Positions 298-37,510 of a stretch of 64,000 nucleotides of DNA are shown one piece after another. The first letter of the stretch is position 1. Each line of letters begins with the position of its first letter. The translations under genes and the position numbers were made by a program. The DNA is from Candidatus Nanoarchaeia archaeon (GTDB lineage: Archaea; Nanobdellota; Nanobdellia; Pacearchaeales; GW2011-AR1), in assembly GCA_035283785.1 (NCBI GenBank), contig DATETG010000005.1, forward strand, positions 2,902 through 66,901, given 5' to 3'. A model generated the notes under the pieces. That model made no database searches. It was not told where the DNA came from and saw nothing but the letters and a program-made list of their open reading frames with translations.

Positions 298-1305
298 ATG
301 GAAATAATATTTCTGTTTTCATTGGCCATAAGCTTTGTCATAACATTGATGATTATCCCTCCCTGGATAAAAAAATCAAAGTCACGCGGTTTTTTATGGG
401 AAGACATGAACAAATACAAGCATCCGAAAAATGTGGCTTCGTCCGGAGGTGTTGTGGTGATGATTTCTTTTGTTCTTGGAGTTTTGTATTACATCGCCGT
501 TAAGACTTTTGTCATAAAATCATACAATAGCGAAGTTATTGAGATATTCGCACTTCTTAATGTAATTCTAATTTTTACCATAATCGGATTTATAGACGAT
601 TTATGGGATTGGAGAAGTGGTGGCTTGTCAAAAAGATGGAGATTAATCCTGGCTGCCGTTGCATCAATACCTTTAATTGCAATTAATGTGGGAACTTCTT
701 CAATGAGCATCCCCCTTCTTGGAACAGTTGACTTTGGGATAATCTACCCTTTGCTACTTGTACCTTTGGGAATTGTCGGCGCGGCAACGACATACAATTT
801 TCTTGCAGGGTTTAACGGATTGGAGGCAAGCCAGGGAATAATAATACTGTCGTTCTTGTCTTTTGTCGCATACAAAACAGGTTCCTCTTGGCTGGCAATT
901 GTAGGTATGACCATGGTTTTTTCTCTTATTGCTTTTTATTTTTTTAACAAATGCCCTGCAAAAATATTCCCAGGAGATTCCATGACATGGTGTATCGGTG
1001 CGTTAATAGCAATAATGGCCATACTCGGAAATTTCGAGAAAATCGCTGTTTTTGTTTTTATTCCCTACATTATTGAAACAGTTCTAAAAACAAGCGGCAA
1101 ACTTGAGAAACATTCTTTCGGCGAACCAAACAAAGACGGAAGTCTGGATATGCCTTACAAGAAAATATACGGGCTTACACACGCAGGGATTTATATCTTG
1201 AAAAAAATAAAGCCTAACAAGAAAGCATATGAAAATGAAGTTGTGTACTTGATTAACGGTTTCCAGATATTAATAATACTAATCGCATATTTTTTGTTTC
1301 TGTAG
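298..1305 (+). CDS. aglH: GlcNAc-1-phosphate transferase (GT4 / MraY-WecA-GPT family), AglH-like
   Basis: Polytopic membrane protein. FIDDLWDW (DDxxD-like) motif and N..NG.E..G motif typical of polyprenyl-P HexNAc-1-P transferases. It sits immediately upstream of aglB. Confidence 0.7.
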   Translation: MEIIFLFSLAISFVITLMIIPPWIKKSKSRGFLWEDMNKYKHPKNVASSGGVVVMISFVLGVLYYIAVKTFVIKSYNSEVIEIFALLNVILIFTIIGFIDDLWDWRSGGLSKRWRLILAAVASIPLIAINVGTSSMSIPLLGTVDFGIIYPLLLVPLGIVGAATTYNFLAGFNGLEASQGIIILSFLSFVAYKTGSSWLAIVGMTMVFSLIAFYFFNKCPAKIFPGDSMTWCIGALIAIMAILGNFEKIAVFVFIPYIIETVLKTSGKLEKHSFGEPNKDGSLDMPYKKIYGLTHAGIYILKKIKPNKKAYENEVVYLINGFQILIILIAYFLFL

Positions 1306-1344: not shown

Positions 1345-4026
1345 ATGGCTGATGAATTTTCGTTTGATATAAAAAAGATTATTTCATTTTTTAATGAAAA
1401 AAAGATTTTTAATGCAATAATCATCATCCTGTTCCTAGCCCTTCTTATCGGAAGCTCGTGGATGCGGTTTCAAAATATGGATCTCCTAAAAGATGTGACC
1501 AATGGAGAACCAATTCCGATAGAGCTAGATACTTTTTATTTCCTAAGAATGGCTGAAACAATAATTGAACAGGGGGCGTTACCAGAATTTGACAATATGA
1601 GATATGTTCCTGCAAAAATTGAATTTTCAAAAGAGATAACTCCTGATGTTCTTGTTTTTATGTACAGGGTTTCAAACGTGTTCGGAGATTACAGCTTACG
1701 ATATCTGGACTTGATCTATCCTGTGATTTTTTTTGCCTTAGGATTGATAGCATTCTTTTTCCTTATTTATGCCTTGACAAATTCAAAAATAACTGCTCTG
1801 CTAAGCAGCGCATTTCTGGCAATTGCACCGACATACCTTTATAGAACCATCTCAGGTTTTTCTGATCACGATGCCATAGGAATGGCTGCCTTTTTTTCAG
1901 CTATGCTCTTTTACACAATAAGCCTAAAGTCAATCGAAAAAAATAAATTCGAGATTAAAAAAACCGTATTACTCGGAATTGGTGCCGGAGCCTTGACTGC
2001 AATTACAATTGTTTCATGGGGAGGAATTGCAAACTACTTATTCATGATTTTTTCCCTAGCACTAATAATAATCTGGTTGATAAAAACAAAGAATATAGAA
2101 GAAATACATGAACTAAAAAGTTATTTGTACTTTTACCCTGCTTGGATTTTCTCAGGTGTTCTGTTCACATCTTTATTTGGCTATGAAGCCATAAGTGTCA
2201 TAAAAAGATATATCTTATCTACAAGTGGCATTATCAGCTTGTTTGTTCTTGGATTTATCATAATTGATTATATCCTCATCCATTTCAGGAATAAAAACGC
2301 GTTCATAAGAAAAAATGAAAAGTATAGGGTGATAATCAGCTTAGTTGCTACAATTTCTTTAGGAATAATCTTCCTTTCTTTAGTAGGAAGGAATCCATTT
2401 GATTTTATTTCTATTCTATTTGGGAGATTTATAGAACCTCTAGGTGTTGGAAGAACAGGTTTGACAGTTGCCGAAAATGTTCAAACATCTTTGAGTGATT
2501 GGATAAGCCAGATAGGGAAAATTTTCTTTTGGTTATTTTATCTTGGAGTGGCAATTGTTGGCATTGAAGTTGCAAAAGGCATTGAAAAAAGAAAAAACAA
2601 GATACTATTTTTCGTTTTTTGGATGATAATGATCTCGGGGATTCTGTTGAGCAAAATTTCTGGAGGTTCCATACTAAACGGATCTAATCTAATAAGCAAT
2701 TTGTTTTACATGGGAGGCATACTTCTATTTTTTGGTTATTGTGTATGGATGTATTTTAATGATAACATGAAAATAAAACCTGAAATGGCTATCCTTGTTT
2801 CTTGGCTTTTTTTCATGCTAATATCAGCGAGAGGAGCGATAAGACTTTTCTTTTCAGCGATGCCTTTCGTGGCATTCATGGGGGTTTTTAGCGTCGTTAA
2901 GATTTTTGATTATTGGAAAAAAACAAAAGATGATCTTCTGAAAGTTGTCTTTGTTGTTTTGCTCATTTTATCGCTTGTGGGGTTGATGATTAGTGCACAG
3001 TTATTTGTCAATTCTTCAAACGAGCAGACGAAATTTAGCGGACCGACAGTAACACCTCAGTGGCAAAAAGCGATGTTTTGGTTAAGAGAAAACACTCCTG
3101 AAAGATCAATCATTGTTCACTGGTGGGATTATGGGTACTGGGTACAATATCTCGGAGAGAGGCCAACTGTCACCGACGGAGGACATGGTGTTGGTTATTG
3201 GGATCACCTGATTGGAAGATATCTTCTAACAACACCTAATCCGGACGCTGCCTTGAGTTTCATGAAAACACAAAATGTTTCATATTTGATAATAGATCAA
3301 ACGGATCTCGGGAAATATCCTGCTTATAGCAAAATAGGAAGCGACCCTGGTGGAAACGACAGATATTCTCAAATTCCTGTGATGACATTAAATCCAAGCC
3401 AGACACAAGAGACAGCCGAAGGCATTTTAAGAGTATATGAAGGTGGGACTCTTGTTGATGAAGACATTTTTTACCAAGATATATTCCTCCCTTCGGGAAA
3501 TGCGATAATAGCAGCGGTTGTGCTTGAAGAATCCGCCTCAGGATTCAAGACTTTTTCACAACCTTATGGAGTATTCCTGTACAACCAAAAACAGATAAAC
3601 CTTCCAATAAGGTACATGTATTATGAAAATCAACTGATTGATTTTGGAGGTGGTTTGAATGCAACAATAAGAATAATTCCAAAAATTGACCAATCATCAA
3701 GTCAGAACATCAATGTAGACAAATCTGGCGCTGCAATATACCTATCACCAAAAGTCTCAAAAAGCCTTTTTGCCCAACTTTACATTCTCGATGATGCATT
3801 TGAGAATTATGGAACAGTGAGCCTGGTTCATTCAGAGGATGATCTTTTGGTTTCCACGCTTAATTCTCAAGGAGCAGATGTTGGTGACTTTGTTTATTTC
3901 CAGGGATTTAGAGGACCAATAAAAATATGGAAGATAGATTATCCTTCAAACATCGTGCCGAGAGAGGAATTTCTAAGAACTTCCGGAGAATACGCAGAGT
4001 TTGACAACCTGAAATTTACCAAGTAG
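1345..4026 (+). CDS. aglB: Archaeal oligosaccharyltransferase AglB (STT3 family)
   Basis: 893 aa with an N-terminal multi-TM domain. The WWDYGYW catalytic motif is present (HWWDYGYWVQY) and a large soluble C-terminal domain follows. Confidence 0.9.
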   Translation: MADEFSFDIKKIISFFNEKKIFNAIIIILFLALLIGSSWMRFQNMDLLKDVTNGEPIPIELDTFYFLRMAETIIEQGALPEFDNMRYVPAKIEFSKEITPDVLVFMYRVSNVFGDYSLRYLDLIYPVIFFALGLIAFFFLIYALTNSKITALLSSAFLAIAPTYLYRTISGFSDHDAIGMAAFFSAMLFYTISLKSIEKNKFEIKKTVLLGIGAGALTAITIVSWGGIANYLFMIFSLALIIIWLIKTKNIEEIHELKSYLYFYPAWIFSGVLFTSLFGYEAISVIKRYILSTSGIISLFVLGFIIIDYILIHFRNKNAFIRKNEKYRVIISLVATISLGIIFLSLVGRNPFDFISILFGRFIEPLGVGRTGLTVAENVQTSLSDWISQIGKIFFWLFYLGVAIVGIEVAKGIEKRKNKILFFVFWMIMISGILLSKISGGSILNGSNLISNLFYMGGILLFFGYCVWMYFNDNMKIKPEMAILVSWLFFMLISARGAIRLFFSAMPFVAFMGVFSVVKIFDYWKKTKDDLLKVVFVVLLILSLVGLMISAQLFVNSSNEQTKFSGPTVTPQWQKAMFWLRENTPERSIIVHWWDYGYWVQYLGERPTVTDGGHGVGYWDHLIGRYLLTTPNPDAALSFMKTQNVSYLIIDQTDLGKYPAYSKIGSDPGGNDRYSQIPVMTLNPSQTQETAEGILRVYEGGTLVDEDIFYQDIFLPSGNAIIAAVVLEESASGFKTFSQPYGVFLYNQKQINLPIRYMYYENQLIDFGGGLNATIRIIPKIDQSSSQNINVDKSGAAIYLSPKVSKSLFAQLYILDDAFENYGTVSLVHSEDDLLVSTLNSQGADVGDFVYFQGFRGPIKIWKIDYPSNIVPREEFLRTSGEYAEFDNLKFTK

Positions 4027-4030
4027 GACT

Positions 4031-5194
4031 GTGCTCCATAAGGTTTATGAATCTTTTTTTTCAAGGATTAAAATGAAAAAAGTTGCAATAATCATCGGAA
4101 CTAGGGCAGAATTCATTAAAACAATGCCGATAATGCTTGAATTGAAAAAAAGAAAAATTCCTTACTCTTTTATCCACACTGGACAACATAGTCTGAAAGA
4201 TTTGTGTGAAAAATTTGAAATCAAAAAACCCGACTTTGTTTTGACGCCCGCACCAAGTAAAAGCACCAAATTTTTTGCCCGCCATATTCGTGCTGCTTTT
4301 TGGAATTTAGGACTAATATTTTCCATAAAAAGAGTCATCAAAAAGATAAATCCGGACTATGTCATCTATCATGGAGATACTATGACAACAGCCTCTGCAT
4401 CGATAGCATCTTCTAAGATGTTGAACCCGTCTAAAAAATATAAAAATATCCACTTGGAAGCCGGATTGAGAAGCGGAAATTTGTTTGAGCCTTTCCCTGA
4501 AGAAATTTCCAGAATAATTGCAGACAGATTTTCCGAAGTTTTGTTTGCAGTTTCCGAGAGGAGCAAAAATAATCTAAGAAGATATAAAAAGTCTAAGAAG
4601 ATAATCCTCACCGGAAATACCATCATTGACTCTGTAGATGTTTCATACAAAAAAGCATTGAAAGAAAAAATAAAAGTGTTCTCAAATAAAAAGTTTGCAT
4701 TGATATCCATACATCGACACGAAAACATAAAAAATAAAAAACGCCTGGAAAAAATTGTTAAAATTTTGCTTTCATTAAACATACCTTCTTATTTTCCATT
4801 GTATGACAATACCAAGGAAAAATTGATAAAATTCGGGCTTTACAAGAAATTAATAGAGAACAAAAATATAACGATTCTGGAATACATAGACTATGTTAAT
4901 TTCATATATCAATTAAAAAACTGTTCTCTGCTTATTTGCGACGGAGGTTCCATTCAAGAAGAGAGTCTTGTGTTTGGAAAGCCATGTATAATACTCAGAA
5001 ATTTTACAGAAAGGCAGGAAGGATTGGAATCAAATTTTCAATTTTTGTCCAAGCTTAACGTGAAAAAAACAGTATACAAAATAAACGAATATCTATCCAA
5101 AGATTTTAAAGTTAAAAAATTCAAAAATCCCTATGGAAACATTGGATTAAGCGAAAAAATAGTTGATCTTATTCAAAATGATAAAAATTATTGA
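4031..5194 (+). CDS. wecB: UDP-N-acetylglucosamine 2-epimerase (non-hydrolysing)
   Basis: N-terminus VAIIIGTRAEFIKTMPIM...HTGQH is typical of UDP-GlcNAc 2-epimerases. Length 387 aa. Confidence 0.8.
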   Translation: MLHKVYESFFSRIKMKKVAIIIGTRAEFIKTMPIMLELKKRKIPYSFIHTGQHSLKDLCEKFEIKKPDFVLTPAPSKSTKFFARHIRAAFWNLGLIFSIKRVIKKINPDYVIYHGDTMTTASASIASSKMLNPSKKYKNIHLEAGLRSGNLFEPFPEEISRIIADRFSEVLFAVSERSKNNLRRYKKSKKIILTGNTIIDSVDVSYKKALKEKIKVFSNKKFALISIHRHENIKNKKRLEKIVKILLSLNIPSYFPLYDNTKEKLIKFGLYKKLIENKNITILEYIDYVNFIYQLKNCSLLICDGGSIQEESLVFGKPCIILRNFTERQEGLESNFQFLSKLNVKKTVYKINEYLSKDFKVKKFKNPYGNIGLSEKIVDLIQNDKNY

Positions 5195-6038
5195 ATCCCT
5201 TTCATGGATTCCCTATAAAACAGCGAAAATGTTTGGAAAACGTAAAAACGATTTTCTGATCTTGGATCTTGAGAAGATAGGAATAAAAAAGAGATTTAAG
5301 TTTAATACTACAAAAACAGACGAAGGTTTGTCATCACAATTAAAAACTTTTGGTTTTAGAGAACCTGTAAATCTGGAGTATTATCACAAATTCGTTGAAA
5401 AAAACGACAAGGTTCTCGATATAGGGGCGAACATAGGATTATTTACGATTTTGAGTGAAAATGCAAAAGAAATTATTTGTGTTGAACCGCTTAAACAGGC
5501 AATTCCTCTGCTTAAGAAAAATATAAATGACAACAATCTGATGGAAAAAACAAAAATAATAAACGCTGCTGTTGGTAAAAAAGGGAAATTGATAATATCC
5601 GTTGACGAGCAGCTGAATCTTTCAAGAATAGTCAGCAAGAAAACAAAAAATTCCTACGAAGTAAAAAGTATGGAATTAATGGATCTGACAAAAAGATATG
5701 ATTCAAATCTTTTAAGAATGGACGTAGAAGGATATGAGTATGAAATACTATTTGAGAAACTACCTAAAAGAATAAACAAAATATCTATCGAATTTCACAC
5801 ATTGCTTCTTGGAAAAGAAAAAGTTTCCAAGCTCTTGAATTATCTTGAAAAAGAAGGCTTTAAGCTGAAATATTTTATAGAGGATCTCCCGATAAGGCTT
5901 TATCCTTTTTTCAATATTTTAAAGAAGTTTGGCTTTTTAAGAAGATTTACCTACGTAAAAAGAAACATTTCAATAAATGAATGTTCAAAAATTATCGGCA
6001 AGGGGAGGGCAGTAAAATACTTGTTTCTTCAGAGATAG
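5163..6038 (+). CDS. FkbM-family SAM-dependent methyltransferase
   Basis: LDIGANIGLFT motif characteristic of the FkbM methyltransferase family. Confidence 0.7.
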   Translation: MILFKMIKIIESLSWIPYKTAKMFGKRKNDFLILDLEKIGIKKRFKFNTTKTDEGLSSQLKTFGFREPVNLEYYHKFVEKNDKVLDIGANIGLFTILSENAKEIICVEPLKQAIPLLKKNINDNNLMEKTKIINAAVGKKGKLIISVDEQLNLSRIVSKKTKNSYEVKSMELMDLTKRYDSNLLRMDVEGYEYEILFEKLPKRINKISIEFHTLLLGKEKVSKLLNYLEKEGFKLKYFIEDLPIRLYPFFNILKKFGFLRRFTYVKRNISINECSKIIGKGRAVKYLFLQR

Positions 6039-6072
6039 AAATGCTTAAAAAATAGTTACTAATATCGTAAAT

Positions 6073-7212
6073 ATGAATAAAAAGAAAAAGACAATAAGAA
6101 TTGACTTCAGGTATTACTGGTGGCATTTCAATCCGGAAAACAACATTTTTACAAATCTTCTAAAAAAAGACTACAATGTGATAATAGACAAAGAAAATCC
6201 AGATTATGTGTTTTTTTCGGTATACACTCCAACGAGACCAATTCACAAACATGAAAGTTTAGGAAAGAAAATTGAGAATTTTTCTCCTACAGTTTATAAG
6301 ATTCTTAGAGAGATTTATTATTTCAAAAAGGAAAGGTGGAAAATGCCTTCGATAAAGGGTAATTTCGTAAAAATTTTCTTTACAGTTGAGAATGCAAAAC
6401 CAAACATGAAAGAATGCGACTGGGCGTTCACTCATGAATACGACGAAGAATTGCAAAATCCCGGGCATATGAGAATTCCCGGATATGCATTTAACTCCAT
6501 AAAAAATCCTGAAGAATTGATAAAGCCGAAAAACCTTGACGTTAAAAAAATAATGAGTGGGAAGAAAAAATTCTGCGTCTTCATATGTTCAAACAATGTA
6601 ACATTTAGGAACAGTTTTTTCAAAAAGCTCAACAAATCCAAGAAGGTAGAATCGTGGGGGAAGGTTTTGAACAACATGGGGAGAGGCATTCCAAAAGTAG
6701 TGGAAATCAATAAGGACAAAAAATCAAAGGGTGAAACCAAAGAGTATGTTGCAAGAGACTTCCTCGCCCAATACAAATTCACAATTGCTTTTGAAAATGC
6801 GTCTCATGTAGGATACACCTCTGAAAGAAAAGTTGAGCCAATGAGGATCTACAACATTCCTATCTACTGGGGGAATCCTCTTGTGTACAGGGACTTTAAC
6901 ACAAAAAGTTTCATAAATTATCATGACTTTGAAAAACAAGTCAGAAAAAAACTGCCAAACTTTTTCTTTAAGATACCACTAATAAATTTCTTGTCGGAAA
7001 AATATGTTGAAGAGATGACTTTCAGAAAAATGATTAAAAGAATAATTGAACTAGACAACAATGATGAGTTATACATGGAAATGTTAAAACAGCCTTGGTA
7101 TAATGATAATGAGCCGCCAATTTATCTTGATAGGGAAAGAATCAGAAAAAGGCTCAGAGAGATAATTGAATCTGGAAAGAAGAATTCTAATATAAAAAAT
7201 GAAAGAAGATGA
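6073..7212 (+). CDS. GT10-family alpha-1,3/4-fucosyltransferase-like glycosyltransferase
   Basis: Contains YKFTIAFENASHVGYTSERK, which matches the GT10 alpha-1,3-FucT signature FxxAFENS...GYxTEK. Confidence 0.6.
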   Translation: MNKKKKTIRIDFRYYWWHFNPENNIFTNLLKKDYNVIIDKENPDYVFFSVYTPTRPIHKHESLGKKIENFSPTVYKILREIYYFKKERWKMPSIKGNFVKIFFTVENAKPNMKECDWAFTHEYDEELQNPGHMRIPGYAFNSIKNPEELIKPKNLDVKKIMSGKKKFCVFICSNNVTFRNSFFKKLNKSKKVESWGKVLNNMGRGIPKVVEINKDKKSKGETKEYVARDFLAQYKFTIAFENASHVGYTSERKVEPMRIYNIPIYWGNPLVYRDFNTKSFINYHDFEKQVRKKLPNFFFKIPLINFLSEKYVEEMTFRKMIKRIIELDNNDELYMEMLKQPWYNDNEPPIYLDRERIRKRLREIIESGKKNSNIKNERR

Positions 7213-7387
7213 AGTTCTAATAAGATTTTTCTATGTGGACGAGGAATTTAATAAAATAAATAGAAAAGAGGAACTTCCTATGGAAGCGTTGAAAATAGAA
7301 CTTGACAGAATAAAATCTGAAGAAAAATCTTTAAGCAGAGAAGAAATAGAAAAAAGTTACAAGATCTTGACTGGGTTAGTAGACTAA
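7199..7387 (+). CDS. small charged hypothetical protein (possible antitoxin partner)
   Basis: 62-aa ORF rich in coiled-coil/charged residues, upstream of a RelE/ParE-like small ORF. Confidence 0.2.
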   Translation: MKEDEVLIRFFYVDEEFNKINRKEELPMEALKIELDRIKSEEKSLSREEIEKSYKILTGLVD

Positions 7388-7491
7388 AGGGACTTTCTTG
7401 CAAAAAACAAGAAGTAGATGTTAATGTACTGTGCATTGATACCCATCATAGTGGAAGTCTTTTTCATGAAACAACGGTTAAACAAGGAGAG

Positions 7492-7719
7492 TTGCATGTA
7501 GATATAGTAAAAAAAGGTGAAGATGCTAAAACAGAGTCTTTATTAAAAATTTCTGATTTTAAGGGGTTTATATCAAACTTACCTCCTGCTGTAAGAAAAA
7601 GAGCTAATTTTTTTGAAGTCTTGTGGGGAAATCATAGAGTCTTCGCCACTATAAAAAGAAATGATAAAAATTTGATGGTTTTACTTGTCTGTGACAATGA
7701 TCCTCAATCAATAACATGA
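7492..7719 (+). CDS. small protein with weak RelE/ParE-toxin-like features
   Basis: 75 aa. F..I..LPPAVRKR segment and HRVFATIK...LMVLLVCDN resemble the RelE/ParE fold pattern. The similarity is weak. Confidence 0.25.
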   Translation: MHVDIVKKGEDAKTESLLKISDFKGFISNLPPAVRKRANFFEVLWGNHRVFATIKRNDKNLMVLLVCDNDPQSIT

Positions 7720-8936
7720 GGTTCTGGAACAGGGATTATTATTTTTCCCCTGAAACCTTTTTGCCTTAGTTTTGGCACTATCACACTCTTTAAGTTCCAA
7801 GCCAAAAGCAATGCATATGTCGGTTGTGGTTCCTGAAAGAGAATTGATTCGTCCTTAATGGGAATGTGCATTCCCGGAGAGTACATTCCTACTTTCAAAC
7901 TTCCATATTCTAGCAAACAGTCAATTGTCTCTTTTCCTATTTTACAAAAATTTAATAGCGTATTCCCCTTTGCCGGAGCGCCAATCCCGACGATATTCCC
8001 ATGTTCTTTTGCTTTAAACAAGATTGAACGAATTTCCTTCATGTTGGAAAAAACCTTTTTCCCAAATGAATCATAAATTTTTCTCGAGTAAAGCCCAAAT
8101 TCTTCTTCTTCAATCAGAATTTTTTTCACGTTTTCAGATATGGGAAAATCTCCCTTTCCGCATGCATAAACTCTCAATGAACCGCCGTGAGTGGTAATCT
8201 TTTCCGCATCGAAAACATCCATATCAAACTTATCAAACAAGTAGATTAATGGTTTAAGAGAGTAATATCTCAAGTGTTCAGCGTAAATAGAATCGTACTC
8301 TGTTTCATGTAAAAGGTCTCTTATGTAGTGTGATTCTTCTATGAAAACACCTTTGGCATCTAAAAGAATTTTTATTCCATTCATAAAGGAATCCAATTCC
8401 CTAACATGAGCAAAAACGTTTGTTGCAGTTATTACTTTTGCTTTTCCATTTTCTCTGAGAATTCTAATTGCAGTTTTCTCGTTGAAAAAGTCTTTCATTG
8501 TTGGAACATTCTTTTTTTGCGCCATTTCGGCTGCTTTCGAAGGATCAACATTAAGTACTTTTATTCCATAAGGAAGATAATTTGAAAGCGATGTTCCGTC
8601 ATTACCTCCGATATCAACAGCAAAATCATTCCTCAACAGATTAAACTTTTTTATGACATTTTCTACCAGGGAATGAAAATTGTCCGCCAGTTCTTTACTT
8701 GAGCCAGTAGTATAAACAAAATCTTCCGTAAACAACAATTCTGGATTTGGGGCGTATCCCAACTGCACTAAGCAACAATCTTCACAAAAATAAACATCAA
8801 GGGGAAAATATATCTCAGGTTCTTTTAATTTTTCTTCTGTCAGAAATCCGTCAGGATTTGGGTGATGCCCTAATGATAAAAATTTATGCATCCTCTCGGA
8901 AGAGCAAATTTGGCATGTTAATTTTTCAGATTTCAT
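7704..8936 (-). CDS. NDP-hexose C-methyltransferase-like protein (TylCIII/NovU type: N-terminal Zn ribbon plus class I SAM MTase)
   Basis: CQIC...CEDCCLVQL zinc-ribbon N-terminus and DIGGNDGT SAM-binding motif. The start is set at the internal ATG at 8934-8936 (MKSEKLTCQIC). Confidence 0.7.
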   Translation of the reverse strand: MKSEKLTCQICSSERMHKFLSLGHHPNPDGFLTEEKLKEPEIYFPLDVYFCEDCCLVQLGYAPNPELLFTEDFVYTTGSSKELADNFHSLVENVIKKFNLLRNDFAVDIGGNDGTSLSNYLPYGIKVLNVDPSKAAEMAQKKNVPTMKDFFNEKTAIRILRENGKAKVITATNVFAHVRELDSFMNGIKILLDAKGVFIEESHYIRDLLHETEYDSIYAEHLRYYSLKPLIYLFDKFDMDVFDAEKITTHGGSLRVYACGKGDFPISENVKKILIEEEEFGLYSRKIYDSFGKKVFSNMKEIRSILFKAKEHGNIVGIGAPAKGNTLLNFCKIGKETIDCLLEYGSLKVGMYSPGMHIPIKDESILFQEPQPTYALLLAWNLKSVIVPKLRQKGFRGKIIIPVPEPHVID

Positions 8937-9086
8937 GGTCTTTGTTCCCCTTATAATTTCTTTTGGATTCTCGAAATAATCATGCACCCTGTTTTTCAGG
9001 CCAAGAAATGAAGTTGACAAATTTTCAGACATAAAAATCAATAAAAAACCTGATTTTTAAGTTTTGTGCAATTAACTCACCACAAA

Positions 9087-9096
9087 GTTTATATAA
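9087..9096 (+). promoter_or_regulatory. TATA-like box (tttatataag) about 25 nt upstream of the ATG at 9117; likely promoter of a leaderless transcript
   Basis: AT-rich TATA consensus at archaeal spacing from the start codon. Confidence 0.35.
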
Positions 9097-9116
9097 GATT
9101 TGACTATTCTAAAACC

Positions 9117-10100
9117 ATGCCGAAAACACTCATAACAGGGGGGGCAGGATTCATAGGTTTCCACTTAGCAAAACGATTGGCAGAACAAAAACACGAAGTT
9201 GTTATAGCAGATAATTTTTTTAGGAGTCAAAAGGAAGGAGATTTATTGGCATTGCTTGAGAGGCCAAACGTAAAAATGATTGAAGCTGACCTAACAGATA
9301 AGGTCTCTTGGGATAAATTAGGTACAGGGTATGATCATGTATATCACCTTGTTGGAATTAACGGAACAAAACTTTTCTATAAAATTCCGCACGAGGTTCT
9401 TAGAATTGGAGTGTCCACAACGATGAATGTACTTGAATGGTTTCACACCAAAAATAATGTGCCTCATGCAAAAATTCTTTACACATCCTCCAATGAAGCA
9501 TACGCAAGCGCTCTTGAAGCATTCGGGAAATTGCCAATACCCACGCCAGAAAATGTTCCGTTAGTTATCGCCGATACATACAATGCCCGATGGTCATATG
9601 GTGGGCAAAAATTAATAGGGGAACTTTTTTTTATTCATTATAGCAAGGCACATAATTTTCGAATGTCGATAGTAAGACCGCACAACTTTTACGGGCCTCG
9701 TGCGGGCTTTGACCATGTTATCCCTGAAATTACAAAGAGAATTGTTGAAAAAGTTGAACCATTCTCTATTTTTGGGGCTGATGAAACCCGCTCGTTTTGC
9801 TATATTGACGACGCAGTTGAAGCGATTCAAAGAGTTATGGAATCAGATAAAACCGACGGAGGAACTTATCACATAGGTACATCGCAAGAAACAGTTATCA
9901 AAGACCTTGTTGAAGAGATGTTTAATATCATGAAATGGCGTCCTCGAAATATTGAAGTTAAAAATTCTCCTGAAGGAAGTGTAAAGAGACGACTACCCGA
10001 TGTCTCAAAAATAAAGAGAGATACTGGCTGGGAAGCTAAAACAGACTTGAGAGAAGGTCTCGAAAAAACAATTGATTGGTATAAGAATAAGTTTAGTTAA
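9117..10100 (+). CDS. NAD-dependent nucleotide-sugar epimerase/dehydratase (extended SDR)
   Basis: LITGGAGFIGFHLAKRL Rossmann motif and YxxxK-type catalytic region. Start taken at MPKTLITGG. Confidence 0.8.
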   Translation: MPKTLITGGAGFIGFHLAKRLAEQKHEVVIADNFFRSQKEGDLLALLERPNVKMIEADLTDKVSWDKLGTGYDHVYHLVGINGTKLFYKIPHEVLRIGVSTTMNVLEWFHTKNNVPHAKILYTSSNEAYASALEAFGKLPIPTPENVPLVIADTYNARWSYGGQKLIGELFFIHYSKAHNFRMSIVRPHNFYGPRAGFDHVIPEITKRIVEKVEPFSIFGADETRSFCYIDDAVEAIQRVMESDKTDGGTYHIGTSQETVIKDLVEEMFNIMKWRPRNIEVKNSPEGSVKRRLPDVSKIKRDTGWEAKTDLREGLEKTIDWYKNKFS

Positions 10101-11206
10101 AAATCATCATAAATTTTCAGAATGGGCTCCAATAAATCATCTGCTTCTTTGTAAGTAAATGGTTTAAATGAATAATCAAGTTCTAAACTTACAGGAAGAT
10201 TTCTTCTCTGAGATTCCTTAAGAACATCGACGAATCTTTCTTTTGGAATTAATCCCTGCAAAGTTTTTCCACCACCCCAATGTTGAGCAGGTTCTGAATT
10301 TGCAGGTAATCTAACACCTATTCCTTCTACTTGAGAAATGTGAACTGCGCGTGCTTGAGCCATATACTCTTCTTGCATTCCAACTCTTTTTTCGTATTCA
10401 TCCCACGAAGAAATTCCCATTGTGGCAAACAAATTATCAGGAGAGAAATTATTTCTGCTGAATGCATTAGGGATTTCTTCCATTGCAACCAAATGGGCCA
10501 GATCAAGAACCAAGTTTCCTCGAGAAATTTTACTTAGATTAGGCAAATCATTAAGAACTTCGTAATGCATTTTGTATTTGTCCATGTCTTCTGTTCTATT
10601 GCCTGTTTGCCAAAAACTTGAGTCCTGCACTACAGCAAGATAAGCATTTTCTATGGCAAGAGTCAATCCTTTTTGAATTCCCAATTCCTGAAGTCCTGCG
10701 AATCTTGATTCTGCAGTATCTATTATTTTGTCTCTCATTTTTACAAAATCAGGAACAGAATAAAATCCAGGTATTGAAAAATCTCCTTCCTTCAAATCAT
10801 GAGGTACTATTACTCCTACATGTGGTGCCACAACCAAATTTTCCCGTGGATTTGGATCTAAATCCCTTAATCTTGCAACGTGATCTATTGTTCTTCCCAA
10901 ATCAGAGGGTTTCTCTGAATTGTAAGTAGGATCAGAAGGAACATATGCTAAAGAGTTGTTTCTTTGAATGCATGTTTCAACGAGTCGTATTGGAATTCCA
11001 TATTTGCGCTCGTTTTCCAACTGCTTCTCAAAATTTTCCGACTTTATTGAATGTCCGGGAAGAAATGGTAAGAATGCGCCAACTTCAGTAGGAACTCCGT
11101 AAGAATCACTCAAGATTTCAATTCTGTCTTTTGCTTCTAAGAAAGCCTCAATTTCTTTATCAAAGTGGAGCATCAGTGGAAGTGCTATTTGCAATAGTTT
11201 TGTCAT
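10097..11206 (-). CDS. xylose-isomerase-like TIM-barrel sugar(-phosphate) isomerase/epimerase family protein (tentative)
   Basis: LAIENAYL and LDLAHLV motifs resemble metal-binding segments of AP-endonuclease-2/xylose-isomerase-like TIM barrels. Codon usage is noticeably GC-richer than its neighbours. Confidence 0.4.
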   Translation of the reverse strand: MTKLLQIALPLMLHFDKEIEAFLEAKDRIEILSDSYGVPTEVGAFLPFLPGHSIKSENFEKQLENERKYGIPIRLVETCIQRNNSLAYVPSDPTYNSEKPSDLGRTIDHVARLRDLDPNPRENLVVAPHVGVIVPHDLKEGDFSIPGFYSVPDFVKMRDKIIDTAESRFAGLQELGIQKGLTLAIENAYLAVVQDSSFWQTGNRTEDMDKYKMHYEVLNDLPNLSKISRGNLVLDLAHLVAMEEIPNAFSRNNFSPDNLFATMGISSWDEYEKRVGMQEEYMAQARAVHISQVEGIGVRLPANSEPAQHWGGGKTLQGLIPKERFVDVLKESQRRNLPVSLELDYSFKPFTYKEADDLLEPILKIYDDF

Positions 11207-11230: not shown

Positions 11231-11992
11231 TTAAAGATTGTGCAATCCTTTTTCATGTTTTAATTTCTCCCACAAACTCACGTCCATTGATGAATCTCTT
11301 GGCAATTCAAAGGGCAGAGAATCCTTAATGTCATCAAGTTTTACGGGTTTCAAATCCCTGATGTACTTTTTGTACAGATTGTAATTTGAAATTTTTTTGT
11401 TTCCGACATTTATTGTTCCAACGAAATCACTTTCAAAAAGGATTTTAATTGCATCAACCAAATCTGAAACATTCATCTTCGAAGTGTAAACATCTTCGGG
11501 AACTTCGGAAAAATTTAATTTATCAGGATTAAAAAAACTAGTTCTTATTATGCAAAAATTTTTCAATAATCTTACAGAACTCTCTGCTGCAAGTTTTGTC
11601 CATCCGTAAGGATTCATGGGAATTGTTGGAGAGTTTTCCGAGTAGTTTCCCTCTGCCCTGCTATAAACGCCGTCAGTAGATATGTGAATAAATCTTATTT
11701 TTTTTCCTTGTTCTGATTCTTTCTTCAAAACTTCATTTACCAGATTAGAAGTCCCAATAACATTTGTATTTATGGCTTTTGTTATTTCCTCCTCTGAATT
11801 CCCGACGCGAACAATGGCTGCACAGTGTATGACTGTCTCAAAATCATTGTTTTGGAAAAAATTTCTCACGGAATCTTTATTAGCAATATCCATTTCTTTA
11901 TGACTTGGTGTTAGAATATTCTGGAATTTCCCGGATTTTACAATTGCGCTACCAAGGTTTCCCGAGCTCCCTGTGATAAGGATATTTTTCAT
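11231..11992 (-). CDS. short NAD(P)-binding reductase/epimerase (RmlD-like dTDP-4-dehydrorhamnose reductase family)
   Basis: N-terminal ILITGSSGNLGSAI Rossmann motif. About 250 aa, typical of RmlD-like reductases. Confidence 0.55.
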   Translation of the reverse strand: MKNILITGSSGNLGSAIVKSGKFQNILTPSHKEMDIANKDSVRNFFQNNDFETVIHCAAIVRVGNSEEEITKAINTNVIGTSNLVNEVLKKESEQGKKIRFIHISTDGVYSRAEGNYSENSPTIPMNPYGWTKLAAESSVRLLKNFCIIRTSFFNPDKLNFSEVPEDVYTSKMNVSDLVDAIKILFESDFVGTINVGNKKISNYNLYKKYIRDLKPVKLDDIKDSLPFELPRDSSMDVSLWEKLKHEKGLHNL

Positions 11993-13247
11993 CTTTGTAT
12001 TCACCAATTGAATGTTCTTTCTTTTCTGATTGCAAATCCTTGTTTTTATCTTTTTTCAATATTCCCCACAGATCAACAACATCAATATCTCCAGAAATTT
12101 GCAATTCTTTATAGGCAGAATGAGGAGCCCCGACAATTATGATATCGCTGTTTTTTATCAATTCTTCCTTTGATACAAATCGCGGATCTTTTGCAAATTC
12201 GTCGGAACAAAAAACTTCTGCTCCATGAAACTTAAGGAGCTTTCTTAATTTGAATGAAAGCGAGTCCCTTATATCATCAACTTCTGCCTTAAAAGCCATT
12301 CCCAAGATTCCAACTTTCTTTTTGTTTAAATCGTGTTTTTTCTTCAGGCTCTCTACAATCGTGTTTGGCAGTCCTTCATTTATTATCATCGCTGCGTTAC
12401 CTAATGGAAAATTAGCGTTATCAAAAGCAACCAAATGCATTGTGTCTTTCAACAAACAAGGACCTGCCGAGAAACCTGCACTTGCGAGCGTGCCTGCCCT
12501 GTCATAACCCTCAATTAATGCTTTTCTTATTCTTTCATAATCAAGACCCAGTTTTGTTGCGAGAGTATAAAACTGGTTTGCTACTGAAAATTGAATGTAT
12601 CTAAAAGAATTTGAAAAAAGCTTTATCAATTCCGCCTCTTCAACAATAGTTTCAACAATCTTTGGAGAAACAACGGAAAAAAGTTCTATGGCATCTTTAA
12701 TTGCTTTTTCGCTGAAACCGGAAACTATCTGGGGTAACTCAAGAAGCTCCTTAATGCCATATCCTTGAGCCAATCTTTCGGGACAGTAAGCAACATGAAT
12801 TGGATTCTCTCCAGCGGTCCAACCAAAATTTTTCAACATCTGCCGACAAACACCCGGATAAACAGTGCTTCTTATTATTAATGTCTGACCAGAGTCCAAA
12901 TACTCTGAGATTTCTGAAATTGAGTCCATAAACTTTCTAACTTGCGGATTCATGTATTCATCAATTTCTGTTCCAAGAGTGATTATCACATTTCTTGCGT
13001 ATGAAATGTCTCTCTTATCAAATGATATTTTTAATTTTTTTTTCTCTAGAACATCCTTCAAGATTGGCTCTGCCCCATGTTCTACAAAGGGCATTATCCC
13101 GTTCAATACAAGTTTTGCCTTATTTTCATCGATATCAAACAGACAAACTTCCAATCCCTTTTGAGCAAACACAATTCCTAATGGCAAACCTACATGCCCT
13201 AATCCACCTACAATCAATACATCAAACTTTCTTTCTCTATCTTCCAT
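11949..13247 (-). CDS. wecC: nucleotide-sugar 6-dehydrogenase (UDP-ManNAc/UDP-Glc dehydrogenase family, WecC-like)
   Basis: FDVLIVGGLGHVGLPLG NAD-binding N-terminus. Central and C-terminal UDPG/MGDP dehydrogenase domains. Start set at the internal Met (MEDRERKFDV). Confidence 0.8.
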   Translation of the reverse strand: MEDRERKFDVLIVGGLGHVGLPLGIVFAQKGLEVCLFDIDENKAKLVLNGIMPFVEHGAEPILKDVLEKKKLKISFDKRDISYARNVIITLGTEIDEYMNPQVRKFMDSISEISEYLDSGQTLIIRSTVYPGVCRQMLKNFGWTAGENPIHVAYCPERLAQGYGIKELLELPQIVSGFSEKAIKDAIELFSVVSPKIVETIVEEAELIKLFSNSFRYIQFSVANQFYTLATKLGLDYERIRKALIEGYDRAGTLASAGFSAGPCLLKDTMHLVAFDNANFPLGNAAMIINEGLPNTIVESLKKKHDLNKKKVGILGMAFKAEVDDIRDSLSFKLRKLLKFHGAEVFCSDEFAKDPRFVSKEELIKNSDIIIVGAPHSAYKELQISGDIDVVDLWGILKKDKNKDLQSEKKEHSIGEYKDEKYPYHRELGKPW

Positions 13248-13310
13248 ATGAAAAGTATCTTCATAAGCTTTAAAAATAATACTATTCTGCAAAATATACT
13301 TATATAAAAG

Positions 13311-14444
13311 ATGAAAAATAAAGAGATTAAAGTACAACTTCTTGCTAGCCCACATCCCCAATTCGACGAGATTTTAAACTTTCCTCCGAGAGGTGTTAAA
13401 TATGTTGTTAACAGAGTAAAAACATCGTATCACGGCTGGTTCACGGAAAAAAAAATAGAACTTCACAACAATCTCCTTAAAATTTTTCCTTTGCCCAGAA
13501 TGGCCAGAACGAAAACAGACGCGGATTTAATTCATTCAACTCGCGGAATATTACAAATAAACCAGAAAAAACCATGGATTGTAGATTGTGAATCGGGAGG
13601 AGTGTTTACTTCTTTTAATTATGAATCTCTCAAGAACCCAATAACAAAAAAGATTATCTCAAAACTTTTATCCTCTAAAAACTGCAAGAAGATACTCCCT
13701 CAAAGCCGGGCGGCAAAGGAAGACTTGCTGAAAGCACTTGATTGCAGCAAATTTAAGGAAAAAATAGAGATTCTTTATCTCGCCATGCGTCCCTGCAGGA
13801 AAAAGAGAATAAACAGAAAAGACAAAAAATTTGTGATCTCTTTTGTTGGAAGATATTTCTATGGGAAGGGTGGACATGATATTATAATGGCATATGAGAG
13901 ACTATCTAAAAAATATAAAAATCTAGAATTGAAATTCAAGGGAGACATACCTAAAGAGTATAAGATTCCAAGGATTAAGGGATTAAAAATCATAAATGGT
14001 CATCTCTCAAGAGAAAAACTTTTTGATGAGATGTATCTTAGTGCAGATGTTTTTGTCTTACCAACACATACAGATAATTACGGAGTGGTTTTTTTAGAGG
14101 CAATGTCTGCAGGATTACCAATAATAGGTACGACCAGCTTCACAGTCCCGGAATTAATTGAAGACGGAAAAAATGGGTTTTTAATAAAAAGTCCTTATTC
14201 CTGGGAAAATTATTTGACAAAGGACGGCTTTGACCAAAAAAAATTCACAGAATATATAACAAAAGATCATCCTGACATTGTTAAACAAATCGTTGATAAA
14301 GTCTCCATTTTAATAGATAACAAGAAATTGAGGGAAAAAATGGGAAAAGAAAGCAGGAGAATGATTGAGGGAAAAAATGGGAAGTTCAGCATTGAAAGAA
14401 GAAACAATCAATTAAAGAGAATATACTTAGAGGCATTATCATGA
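13311..14444 (+). CDS. GT1/GT4-family glycosyltransferase
   Basis: EAMSAGLPIIGT...GKNGFL EX7E-type motif of retaining GT4 glycosyltransferases. Confidence 0.75.
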   Translation: MKNKEIKVQLLASPHPQFDEILNFPPRGVKYVVNRVKTSYHGWFTEKKIELHNNLLKIFPLPRMARTKTDADLIHSTRGILQINQKKPWIVDCESGGVFTSFNYESLKNPITKKIISKLLSSKNCKKILPQSRAAKEDLLKALDCSKFKEKIEILYLAMRPCRKKRINRKDKKFVISFVGRYFYGKGGHDIIMAYERLSKKYKNLELKFKGDIPKEYKIPRIKGLKIINGHLSREKLFDEMYLSADVFVLPTHTDNYGVVFLEAMSAGLPIIGTTSFTVPELIEDGKNGFLIKSPYSWENYLTKDGFDQKKFTEYITKDHPDIVKQIVDKVSILIDNKKLREKMGKESRRMIEGKNGKFSIERRNNQLKRIYLEALS

Positions 14445-16161: not shown

Positions 16162-16934
16162 AAAAATTTACGTTAAGAGTGGACGTTGAATCCGAAAGAG
16201 GAATAAAAGAGGGTATACCTCCACTTCTTAACCTGCTTAAAAAACACAATATCAAGGCAAGTTTTTACGTGTCTATGGGTGGAGAATCTAATATTCTTGA
16301 ACTTCTAAAGTACAGAAAATCTCTGGAGAGTTCTATGGAAAGAAATGTAAGTGTTTGGAGTTTAAGGGACAAATTTAGGATGGCTTTTTTCCCAAAGGAT
16401 TTCGTAACAATTAACAGAGATATTCTAAAACTAATTTTAGAAGAAGGACATGAACTGGGGATTCATGGTTGGAAACACAGAGAATGGACTCGAGGATTAA
16501 ACATGATAGATATAGAAAAAACAGTTGACAAATCTGTGTCCAAGTATGAAAAGTTATTTGGAAAGAAACCAATAAGTTTTTCAGCACCAGGTTTCAATTC
16601 AAATGAAAAAGTTTTGAAGATTCTAAGAACAAGAGGAATAAAATTTATGAGTGATTTTCCGGGAGAGTCTGTTAAGATTTACGATGGTATAAAAAATATT
16701 CCCATAACAATAACCGGAAAAAAACAATCTCCAATAATAGAGTATCTAGTTTCCTTAGGAAAAAATGATGATGAGATTTTTGATGAGATAAAGGAAAAAA
16801 TAATTAATAAAAATATTGCCTCAATGTATGTACATTGTCTTTTTGAAGCTCGATTTAAAATTCCGTTGCTGGAAAGGATATTTGAATTTGTCAAAAAGGA
16901 GAAGATTAAAACAAGGAGGATTATTGATTACTAA
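16158..16934 (+). CDS. polysaccharide deacetylase (CE4 / ArnD-like deformylase family)
   Basis: N-terminus FTLRVDVESERGIKEGIPPLLNLLKKHNIKASFYVSMGGE closely parallels the ArnD N-terminus (LRIDVDT.RGTREGVPRLLEIL..HNI.ASFFFSVG). Confidence 0.6.
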   Translation: MKKFTLRVDVESERGIKEGIPPLLNLLKKHNIKASFYVSMGGESNILELLKYRKSLESSMERNVSVWSLRDKFRMAFFPKDFVTINRDILKLILEEGHELGIHGWKHREWTRGLNMIDIEKTVDKSVSKYEKLFGKKPISFSAPGFNSNEKVLKILRTRGIKFMSDFPGESVKIYDGIKNIPITITGKKQSPIIEYLVSLGKNDDEIFDEIKEKIINKNIASMYVHCLFEARFKIPLLERIFEFVKKEKIKTRRIIDY

Positions 16935-16935
16935 G

Positions 16936-19047: not shown

Positions 19048-19048
19048 C

Positions 19049-19486: not shown

Positions 19487-19487
19487 T

Positions 19488-20195: not shown

Positions 20196-20256
20196 TAAAA
20201 ATTTAGAAGATTATCATTTAAAAGAATAATGGAAGTTAGATTCATAATTTTTAAGA

Positions 20257-21365: not shown

Positions 21366-21438
21366 TAAAATTAACCTTTTTTAAGTTTTATGAAACCTCA
21401 TTATGTATGTTTACTACAATAACCTTAATAAATGAAAT

Positions 21439-37169: not shown

Positions 37170-37261
37170 TGCCCGGGTAGCTCAGTCTGGATTAGAGCGA
37201 CGCACTCCTAAAATTAATTTGAAGTGATGCGTAGGTCGCAGGTTCAAATCCTGTCTCGGGC
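37170..37261 (+). tRNA. tRNA-Arg (anticodon CCT) with a ~16-nt intron next to the anticodon loop
   Basis: Acceptor GCCCGGG/CUCGGGC, anticodon stem ACGCA/UGCGU with loop CUCCUAA. A 16-nt insert (AATTAATTTGAAGTGA, 37211-37226) lies between the loop and the 3' stem strand. T-arm GCAGG-UUCAAAU-CCUGU. Confidence 0.7.

Positions 37262-37391: not shown

Positions 37392-37510
<119 letters not shown>

Follow-up and report, generated by a model that had tools for sequence, protein, structure and literature searches.

The gene at positions 6073-7212 of the DNA stretch analyzed here (64 kb of the archaeal contig DATETG010000005.1; "the window" denotes this whole stretch) was singled out by an earlier note, written from the sequence alone, for its resemblance to the GT10 family of alpha1,3/4-fucosyltransferases. 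The locus raises the question of whether a member of this family operates in a tiny, uncultured archaeon of the DPANN type and, if so, which sugar it transfers and to which glycan. The best explanation overall is that the enzyme acts within a five-gene cluster, aglH-aglB-wecB-fkbM-GT10, on a lipid-linked glycan started by AglH and with a GDP-activated 6-deoxy-L-hexose as donor, a reading to which we assign a probability of roughly 0.7.

Identity and Fold of the GT10 Protein

The gene and the two sites on which its assignment turns are as follows.

6073..7212, + strand: GT10-family (alpha1,3/4-fucosyltransferase family) glycosyltransferase gene, an ATG-initiated open reading frame (ORF) of 379 amino acids (aa)
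6388..6390, + strand: codon of Glu106, equivalent to the catalytic base Glu95 of the Helicobacter pylori alpha1,3-fucosyltransferase (HpFucT) and to Glu158 of Arabidopsis FUT11 (AtFUT11), alignment FFTVENAKPN / FYTGENESPN
6772..6831, + strand: donor-binding motif YKFTIAFENASHVGYTSERK (aa 234-253), from the alignment to 2NZW and its conservation over 98 sequences

Both Pfam domains of the family were recovered above their gathering scores, namely FucT_N (PF18025, 51.7 bits against a cut-off of 27.2, E 1.2e-13) and Glyco_transf_10 (PF00852, 46.3 bits against 23.9, E 4.8e-12, aa 162-288). A scan against NCBIfam gave no family at E <= 1 and was uninformative. By sequence, the nearest solved relative is HpFucT (2NZW, E 1.3e-19), followed by mango FUT13 and, weakly, by AtFUT11 (E 0.21). 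The AlphaFold2 model, for which 38 homologues served as input, reached a pLDDT of 87.1 and a pTM of 0.86. When this model was compared with the PDB by Foldseek, ranks 1-18 were all occupied by GT10 fucosyltransferases (HpFucT, mango FUT13, human FUT9, and AtFUT11), with an E of 1e-16 for HpFucT, and the first match outside the family appeared at rank 19 (E 8e-4).

Judged from sequence and model, the ORF thus encodes a genuine GT10-family member, a metal-independent inverting glycosyltransferase of the GT-B fold. The GT10 signature reported earlier is borne out by the domain search, the match to 2NZW, and the fold. The alternative that the motif match is fortuitous and the protein belongs to another glycosyltransferase family, which the earlier note had itself named as the outcome that would overturn its claim, is refuted: sequence domains, nearest structure, and modeled fold all point to GT10, nothing speaks in its favor after testing, and its remaining probability is negligible.

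Catalytic Residues and the Donor-Binding Motif

Residue equivalences were counted along the HMMER alignment to 2NZW.

HpFucT E95, window E106: catalytic base
HpFucT R195, window R179: conserved
HpFucT N240, window N242: conserved
HpFucT Y246, window Y248: conserved
HpFucT E249, window E251: conserved
HpFucT K250, window R252: changed

In the crystal structure of AtFUT11, the equivalent Glu of the motif binds guanosine; Lys, Arg, and Asn bind the pyrophosphate; and a Glu of the N-terminal part is the base (PMC12929593). For HpFucT, Tyr246, Glu249, and Lys250 have been described as conserved donor contacts (PMC11468063). Among the 98 aligned sequences, the position of Glu106 is Glu in 95, including all 11 members of the window's own clade and 84 of the 87 others. 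The FEN box is kept (E241, N242), and the positions of R179 and E241 are invariant throughout the alignment.

The motif ends in Y-T-S-E-R in the window protein, compared with the strict Y-x-T-E-K of the alpha1,3-fucosyltransferase motif, so that it closes on S-E-R in place of the canonical T-E-K, a detail overlooked when the gene was first read. Position 252 is Lys in 87/87 sequences outside the window's clade and Arg in 11/11 inside it. The exchange is conservative and keeps the charge, and on the alignment it appears to be a clade-specific variant that gives no ground for exclusion from GT10, because membership in CAZy and Pfam follows from overall similarity and not from that residue. On the alignment, the protein thus possesses the full catalytic set of an inverting, metal-independent GT-B fucosyltransferase, with this Lys-to-Arg change as the one conservative exception.

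An N-Glycosylation Cluster Around the GT10 Gene

Five genes that run in one direction, separated by gaps of 39, 4, -32, and 34 nt, end with GT10. The four upstream genes and the flippase of the surrounding 35-kb glycosylation island are listed here.

298..1305, + strand: AglH/WecA-type GlcNAc-1-phosphate transferase (Glycos_transf_4; PF00953, 108.5 bits), first gene of the cluster
1345..4026, + strand: AglB/STT3 oligosaccharyltransferase (PF02516, PF21436, PF22627)
4031..5194, + strand: non-hydrolyzing UDP-GlcNAc 2-epimerase, WecB (PF02350, 222 bits; TIGR00236, 237.5 bits against a cut-off of 210)
5163..6038, + strand: FkbM-family methyltransferase (PF05050; TIGR01444, 79 bits against a cut-off of 37.7), 34 nt before the GT10 gene
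25623..27137, - strand: Wzx/MurJ-type flippase (PF01943, PF13440)

AglB scored 96.5 bits against TIGR04154 (archaeo_STT3), below the 450-bit cut-off. The placement of the gene in an N-glycosylation island, as the earlier note had proposed, is confirmed by its position beside AglB/STT3 and the GlcNAc-1-phosphate transferase. The same five-gene order is also present in locus L004 (P0025), where the AglH and FkbM orthologues, 68% and 66% identical, respectively, occupy equivalent positions. In the distant archaeal loci L014, L045, L060, and L063 (Forterrea and unclassified archaea), AglH lies directly upstream of GT10 at about 1 kb, a recurring pair that fits a GT10 enzyme acting on the first GlcNAc of a lipid-linked glycan. 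AglB itself lies within 10 kb of GT10 in eight or more further archaeal loci (L009, L011, L016, L020, L023, and L029 among them), and the other loci of the window's clade have no AglB within 10 kb. In L001, L101, L102, and L103, a Wzx gene is the divergent upstream neighbor of GT10.

Proposed Mechanism

Because of the five-gene cluster, its conserved order in L004, and the AglH and Wzx neighbors elsewhere, the enzyme would decorate a lipid-linked, GlcNAc-primed glycan before flipping and transfer by AglB. With the family, fold, conserved catalytic residues, gene context, and phyletic spread as observations, we infer the acceptor, the topology, and the donor as follows. The enzyme would act most likely at the cytoplasmic face of the membrane, where the AglH-started, dolichol-linked glycan would offer a GlcNAc-type residue, one hydroxyl of which Glu106 would deprotonate. 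The donor would be a GDP-activated 6-deoxy-L-hexose, bound at its diphosphate by Arg179, Asn242, and Arg252 and at its ribose by Glu251, and the sugar would be transferred with inversion. The finished glycan would then be flipped by a Wzx-type flippase and placed on Asn by AglB. This scheme is supported by the conservation of E106, R179, E241, N242, Y248, and E251, as well as by the retention of a basic residue, as Arg, at position 252. An alpha1,3 or alpha1,4 linkage to GlcNAc is suggested by the adjacency to AglH as its sole basis.

The Arg-Variant Clade and Its C-Methyltransferase Partner

The Lys-to-Arg change defines a clade (the Arg-variant clade) that was sampled by 11 distinct sequences among the 98 aligned, or 12 with L103. 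Its members are at least 64% identical to the window GT10 and are joined with a bootstrap of 100%. Across the whole protein, the only clade-specific changes at positions that are at least 80% conserved elsewhere are D193E, T250S, and K252R, of which the last two lie within the TEK donor-binding motif; E251 is additionally replaced by Asp in 7/11 members. The clade shares a second gene, which in the window lies convergent to GT10 beyond an unusually long spacer.

7704..9041, - strand: TylC3/TcaB9-type NDP-sugar 3-C-methyltransferase (PF08421, PF13489, PF08484; Methyltransf_13/23/14)
7213..7703, no strand: 491-bp spacer between the convergent GT10 and methyltransferase genes

The methyltransferase possesses a Zn-binding N-terminal domain, an S-adenosylmethionine-dependent methyltransferase domain, and a C-terminal Methyltransf_14 domain. 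Its best PDB match is the D-mycarose 3-C-methyltransferase (4RV9, E 2.5e-64), and TcaB9 and KijD1 (5T64, 3NDI) are matched over the full length at E values of about 1e-56 to 1e-58. The orthologue is found directly downstream of and convergent to GT10 in 12/12 Arg-variant loci (61-75% identical to the window copy), with a sulfotransferase between the two genes in 2/12; L090, where the match is 100%, is a near-identical copy of the window. When the sister locus L107 is included, the distance from GT10 is 0.8-2.1 kb and the identity 59-75%. The upstream neighbor of GT10 varies among these loci, and no canonical-motif GT10 locus, except L107, contains the orthologue. In the relatives, the 3' ends of the GT10 and methyltransferase genes abut or, in several loci, overlap. 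Two small ORFs on the + strand of the window spacer (62 and 75 aa) showed no conservation outside the near-identical contig.

Beyond the methyltransferase, a WbuC-type cupin and a Gmd or Gmd-like gene follow in 7/9 Arg-variant loci with adequate flanks. The three Gmd proteins tested scored 429-440 bits against the TIGR01472 cut-off of 415, and the remainder show 78-79% identity to one of the validated proteins. Often these Gmd-containing loci have a TylF-like O-methyltransferase too, and an Fcl-like gene was found in 0/9. The nucleotide of the methyltransferase substrate may thus be GDP in most relatives, as the adjacency of Gmd points to. In the window and in L099, Gmd and the cupin are missing, and a pair of a short-chain dehydrogenase/reductase (SDR) and a nucleotide-sugar dehydrogenase adjoins the methyltransferase instead. 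In L001, L102, and L103, GT10 is the sole glycosyltransferase within 8-10 kb.

A strict coupling of the Lys-to-Arg change with the methyltransferase neighbor was considered and rejected, as L107 retains TEK and L104-L106 carry the orthologue without GT10. L107 shows the layout GT10, convergent methyltransferase, SDR, RmlD-like reductase, and dehydrogenase together with the canonical TEK, so that the adjacency of the two genes predates the Lys-to-Arg change. In L104, a 319-aa ORF without a Pfam match (9239-10198, - strand) occupies the expected place of GT10, convergent with the methyltransferase. It was rejected as a divergent GT10, since neither a hidden Markov model (HMM) nor tblastn gave any signal, and it may be an unrecognized transferase that replaces GT10. 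L105 and L106 are Micrarchaeota-type contigs in which the methyltransferase stands next to AglB. They share a conserved module (4541-9215) of a nucleotide-sugar dehydrogenase, a radical-SAM/SPASM enzyme, an SDR, and the C-methyltransferase; the radical-SAM gene of this module is missing from the window, which shares the SDR and the dehydrogenase.

Fusions of the methyltransferase were also observed (L101 12006-13736; P0264, P0277, and P0278), either with a CTP_transf_like nucleotidyltransferase domain (576-580 aa) or with an SDR domain (736 aa). They hint at substrate channeling and raise the question of which nucleotide carries the sugar.

Donor Supply and Competing Readings

Genes for GDP-fucose synthesis (Gmd, Fcl) and salvage (Fkp) were searched for over the entire 64-kb window with NCBIfam models and by tblastn with validated archaeal Gmd proteins and E. 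coli probes. Matches of the E. coli Gmd and Fcl probes were accepted only after validation with NCBIfam. Against the Gmd model (TIGR01472), the best SDR of the window reached 103 bits, compared with a cut-off of 415, and against the Fcl model (NF047922) the best score was 64.8 bits, compared with 500. The validated archaeal Gmd proteins of relatives gave only a 26-28% match in the window, at 21439-22503. The earlier observation that the island has no gmd or fcl therefore extends to all 64 kb. L004 and L099 have, near GT10, a nucleotidyltransferase-GHMP-kinase fusion in the domain order of the salvage enzyme Fkp. Such a fusion is absent from the window, where the L004/L099 protein finds a match only with its nucleotidyltransferase half (32%). 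By comparison, several canonical-motif DPANN GT10 loci have a Gmd-like gene nearby that is 45-67% identical to E. coli Gmd (not individually validated), and the Fcl-like genes in such loci match over their full length only GDP-L-fucose synthase (281-417 bits). Because canonical-motif GT10 genes sit near these Gmd-like and Fcl-like genes, the ancestral function of DPANN GT10 was, on gene context, very probably fucosyl transfer from a GDP-sugar.

Some of these results weigh against the mechanism proposed above. The donor is not accounted for locally, since neither Gmd nor Fcl nor an Fkp-like gene is present in the window; Arg stands in place of the otherwise invariant Lys of TEK; GT10 and the C-methyltransferase are not co-transcribed, as they are convergent; and GT10 could serve a glycoconjugate other than the AglB substrate, because the island holds many other glycosyltransferases. 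This last point leads to the reading that GT10 modifies, for instance, a glycolipid, an exopolysaccharide, or an S-layer O-glycan and is no more than a neighbor of the AglB machinery within the island. At least seven other glycosyltransferase genes and the Wzx flippase lie in the 35-kb island, and several relatives have GT10 beside Wzx, sulfotransferase, 3'-phosphoadenosine-5'-phosphosulfate (PAPS), or phosphonate genes with no AglB within 10 kb, all of which would suit a different glycoconjugate. We nevertheless regard this as improbable in view of the co-directional and tightly spaced arrangement with aglH and aglB in the window and L004 and of the direct AglH neighbor in four distant archaeal loci. 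If GT10 instead works on the AglH-started glycan, as preferred here, the 6-deoxyhexose may be fucose itself, and the protein then a plain alpha1,3/4-L-fucosyltransferase, as the earlier note had read it, with GDP-L-fucose made or scavenged outside the window and a neutral Lys-to-Arg change. Supply from a host or the environment is the usual case in reduced DPANN genomes, and just 64 kb of this genome were analyzed. No catalytic position is lost, Arg being a conservative substitute for Lys at a diphosphate contact; the canonical relatives with their Gmd and Fcl-like genes, as well as L107 with the window's layout and a canonical TEK, agree with fucose; and every GT10 activity in the cited literature is fucosyl transfer (PMC11468063, PMC12717137). 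On the other side stand the missing donor genes of the window, the lack of an Fcl-like gene in all nine adequately flanked Arg-variant loci although seven have Gmd or a Gmd-like gene, and the strictness with which Lys is kept in 87/87 sequences elsewhere, so that its clade-wide replacement is not obviously neutral. Plain fucose transfer is accordingly a serious candidate, yet one that falls somewhat short of even odds.

The other donor considered is a fucose-like 3-C-methyl-6-deoxyhexose, possibly also O-methylated, toward which the Arg-variant GT10 would have shifted. It would be made from a 4-keto sugar-nucleotide precursor (in most relatives GDP-4-keto-6-deoxymannose from Gmd) by the TylC3-type C-methyltransferase, the WbuC-type cupin, and an RmlD-like reductase. 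The constant methyltransferase neighbor in 12/12 loci despite a varying upstream neighbor, its absence from canonical loci other than L107, and the combination of Gmd and cupin in 7/9 loci with Fcl in none are consistent with such a pathway. So are the loci in which GT10 is the only glycosyltransferase nearby and the clade changes D193E, T250S, and K252R, the last two in the TEK motif, on a branch with full bootstrap support. However, the clade is one lineage, and the association of GT10 with the methyltransferase is thus in effect one evolutionary event; overlapping 3' ends could by themselves keep both genes together in several loci. Methyltransferase orthologues occur without GT10 in L104, L105, and L106 and with a canonical TEK enzyme in L107, and Gmd and cupin are missing from the window and L099. 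The changed TEK-motif residues contact the nucleotide or pyrophosphate and not the sugar (PMC12929593), and no GT10 with a non-fucose donor is described in the GT10 literature examined. For the single lineage, the 3' overlap, L104-L107, the lack of Gmd in the window and L099, and the nucleotide-contacting position of the changed residues, we do not commit to the branched donor, which we hold to be about as likely as plain fucose, or slightly less so.

Host and Phyletic Distribution

The window contains Orc1/Cdc6, the small and large subunits of the archaea-specific PolD, the archaeal ribosomal proteins uS13 and uS4, RpoD, and L18e. The closest named relatives of its RpoD are metagenome-assembled genomes (MAGs) of Pacearchaeota and Nanoarchaeota (54-60% identity). 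By these marker sequences, the host is identified as a Pacearchaeota-like DPANN archaeon, and the archaeal origin assumed in the earlier note holds on the strength of Orc1/Cdc6, PolD, the archaeal ribosomal proteins, and AglB. A GT10 protein of the same 90% cluster is labeled "Candidatus Woesebacteria bacterium," a bacterium of the candidate phyla radiation (CPR), in NCBI (HCR36443.1 / DIU22_05405; also DIU22_05420; corresponding to window 6073-9041). Because its contig carries Orc1, PolD, AglB, and archaeal ribosomal proteins, this label is a taxonomic mislabel. L010, labeled "Patescibacteria group bacterium," is a similar case: its tblastn matches equal those of the Woesearchaeota contig L009 (GT10 46%, FkbM 58%, Epimerase_2 53%), and it has a match to AglB as well.

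GT10 relatives proved to be far more widespread than the earlier note had supposed when it ascribed the motif to eukaryotes and a few host-associated bacteria. A word-indexed search yielded 524 homologues, of which the top 120 all contain both GT10 domains and, where organism names are given, are archaeal (Pacearchaeota, Diapherotrites, "archaeon") except for the one mislabeled record; their products are named "glycosyltransferase family 10," "alpha(1,3/1,4) fucosyltransferase," or "hypothetical protein." When 1.84 billion cluster representatives (50% identity) were searched exhaustively, 3,392 clusters matched at E <= 1e-3, of which 1,821 also passed E <= 1e-10. Among the GTDB species representatives, searched with two peptide patterns only, 195 stretches encode GT10 relatives. 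Their archaeal sources are Woese-, Pace-, and Nanoarchaeota, Iainarchaeum, and Forterrea, and their bacterial sources include Chitinophagaceae, Ignavibacteria, cyanobacteria, Verrucomicrobia, Hyphomicrobiales, Gemmatimonadetes, Omnitrophota, Kuenenia, Nitrospinota, and others. The best 80 of the 195 comprise 35 archaeal-labeled contigs, all DPANN-type or unclassified (31-64% identity), and the remainder come from free-living environmental bacteria (31-39%). DPANN homologues are already named as GT10 family by NCBI and JGI, and six archaeal sequences already appear in the phylogeny of a 2025 fucosyltransferase review (PMC12717137). As such genes are common in DPANN archaea and free-living bacteria, the gene is mostly ordinary: an uncharacterized new member of a known and widely distributed family.

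In a Kimura-corrected neighbor-joining tree of 94 sequences, 33 archaeal-labeled sequences, the window, and 16 unlabeled metagenome sequences form one clade without a bacterial member, and 43 bacterial-labeled sequences from free-living environmental taxa, together with one unlabeled contig, fall outside it. The split between archaea and bacteria has a bootstrap of only 47%, and strong archaeal monophyly is therefore not claimed. A recent acquisition from a host-associated bacterium or a eukaryote, which the earlier note implied, had been suggested by that note's account of the family's distribution, and the GC content of the GT10 gene region (0.31-0.34) is slightly under the window mean. The whole island is equally low in GC, however, the nearest homologues are archaeal, and the bacteria that branch apart from them are free-living. 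Moreover, the GT10 of MAG JBDRNS01 is 64% identical to that of the window, compared with 56% for RpoD. Since the archaeal sequences group together and GT10 is no more diverged than RpoD, there is no sign of recent transfer from host-associated bacteria, and we consider such a transfer highly improbable.

Comparison with Known Systems

HpFucT/FutA (2NZW/2NZX/2NZY) is the closest solved relative by sequence and fold (TM about 0.6), with the same two-domain GT-B architecture and with its Glu95, Arg195, Asn240, Tyr246, and Glu249 all conserved in the window protein. Overall identity is about 22%, and the window protein differs by Arg for Lys250 and Ser for Thr248. HpFucT has C-terminal heptad repeats; none were seen by eye in the window protein, for which no repeat search was run, and which has a conserved helical region (aa 290-379) at that place. 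HpFucT furthermore serves Lewis-antigen synthesis on lipopolysaccharide (LPS), whereas the window gene belongs to an archaeal AglB N-glycosylation cluster.

The canonical-motif DPANN enzymes (Pace-, Woese-, and Nanoarchaeota, Iainarchaeum) are 37-62% identical to the window protein, equal in length, equipped with both Pfam domains, and grouped with it in the archaeal clade of the tree. Their motif still ends in (T/S)-E-K, and Gmd and an Fcl-like gene are found close to several of them. In the window's clade the ending is S-(E/D)-R, an Fcl-like gene is lacking, and the C-methyltransferase is a fixed neighbor.

The plant and insect core alpha1,3-fucosyltransferases (AtFUT11, 9S6A; mango FUT13, 7YRO) match the window protein in fold (Foldseek E 1e-5 to 2e-8) and agree with it in the Glu base and in the donor contacts Arg/Asn/Glu-Lys. 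As they fucosylate the Asn-proximal GlcNAc of N-glycans, they provide the closest functional analogy to a GT10 gene beside AglH and AglB. At 11-15%, their identity to the window protein is low, and they work in the Golgi lumen, as type II membrane proteins, on glycans already bound to protein; the window protein has no N-terminal membrane anchor predicted in its model and would act on the lipid-linked precursor before flipping.

For the C-methyltransferase, a parallel is offered by the virenose (6-deoxy-3-C-methyl-gulose) of Coxiella burnetii LPS, for which a route from GDP-mannose via Gmd, the TylCIII-like CBU_0691, and a reductase has been proposed (PMC3539893). The window's relatives likewise combine an above-cut-off Gmd, a TylC3-type 3-C-methyltransferase, and reductases, and because of this resemblance the Arg-variant clade may transfer a C-methyl-branched, fucose-like sugar. 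The Coxiella route is itself only predicted, bacterial, and directed to LPS, with no GT10 implicated, and the window lacks Gmd.

Among descriptions of archaeal glycans, a 2024 review of archaeal N-glycosylation lists no DPANN glycan and no fucose-containing N-glycan, its sole mention of fucose being the 6-C-sulfo-D-fucose of Thermoplasma (PMC11407970). A literature search returned no paper treating fucosyltransferases together with DPANN lineages among the matches listed.

Other Genes of the Island and the Window

Downstream of the C-methyltransferase, the island continues with further sugar-modification genes.

9066..10100, + strand: extended SDR of the epimerase/dehydratase/decarboxylase type (Pfam; best NCBIfam score 121 bits, far under every cut-off)
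10097..11206, - strand: conserved 369-aa protein of unassigned function (50-52% identical in L001 and L087 by tblastn)
11231..12007, - strand: short RmlD-like reductase of 258 aa (PF04321, 100 bits; 60% identical to the L001 counterpart, 53% to that of L107)
11949..13361, - strand: nucleotide-sugar 6-dehydrogenase of the UDP-Glc/GDP-Man dehydrogenase family (TIGR03026, 262.9 bits against a cut-off of 189.8)
16816..22503, no single strand given: second sugar-modification set of four genes
16816-17799: RmlD-like reductase of the second set
17800-19083, - strand: TylC3-type C-methyltransferase of the second set, 30% identical to the first
19488-20195: nucleotidyltransferase of the second set
21439-22503: dehydratase-like SDR of the second set

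Orthologues of the first SDR (48-50% by blastp) lie beside the C-methyltransferase in L099, L105, and L106, and the same three loci have orthologues of the dehydrogenase (36-38%). The RmlD-like reductase at 11231-12007 is a candidate 4-ketoreductase of the branched-sugar pathway. The 369-aa protein gave no match in Pfam (E <= 1), NCBIfam, or a PDB sequence search, and its single-sequence AlphaFold2 model was unusable (pLDDT 35). The second set represents the window's only route to a possible NDP-4-keto-6-deoxyhexose, and the island may make two different C-branched sugars.

A 145-aa ORF at 19049-19486 (- strand), with a weak Glyco_transf_4 match, looks like a shortened paralogue matching the N-terminal half of the GT4-like protein at 24724-25626 (+ strand, 300 aa), the two translations having in common stretches such as LSREDD...Y(D/E)VI(Y/F)(T/S)QDWS(M/F)AFPLL. 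At 37171-37262 (+ strand), Rfam places a 92-nt tRNA immediately behind tRNA-Leu(CAA) and ahead of the 5S rRNA (37396-37510); it is not reported by ARAGORN and is probably an intron-containing archaeal tRNA. A low-GC stretch at 50-56 kb (GC 0.32) contains a 256-aa ORF (50721-51491, - strand) that begins with MAENSKSQAAIYIRVSTEEQARQG, a start of the kind seen in serine recombinases or resolvases; several short ORFs come after it, and the region may be an integrated element.

In the relatives, phosphonate-biosynthesis genes (phosphoenolpyruvate mutase, thiamine pyrophosphate-dependent decarboxylase, and Fe-dependent alcohol dehydrogenase) lie near GT10 in L001 (2548-8498), and sulfotransferases with ATP sulfurylase and APS kinase lie in the flanks of L100-L103. 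Because such genes flank GT10 loci, the surface glycans of these relatives are probably phosphonylated or sulfated.

Implications

As an oddity, that is, as a eukaryote-like fucosyltransferase in an archaeon, the gene carries little weight, since the family is widespread and already annotated. Its position in a tight cluster with AglH and AglB, on the other hand, predicts a fucose-type residue near the base of the N-glycan, comparable to the core alpha1,3-fucose of plants and insects. DPANN cells are thought to rely on surface contact with their hosts, and the GT10 family is used in chemo-enzymatic fucosylation. The Lys-to-Arg change, the fixed C-methyltransferase partner, and the lack of Fcl together provide a modest but testable lead on a new donor specificity. 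The boldest reading, in which the Arg-variant GT10 of marine Pacearchaeota-like archaea has given up fucose for a 6-deoxyhexose that is 3-C-methyl-branched by the partner methyltransferase and possibly O-methylated, is less likely than not; if true, it would give GT10 its first donor other than fucose and archaeal N-glycans their first C-branched sugar.

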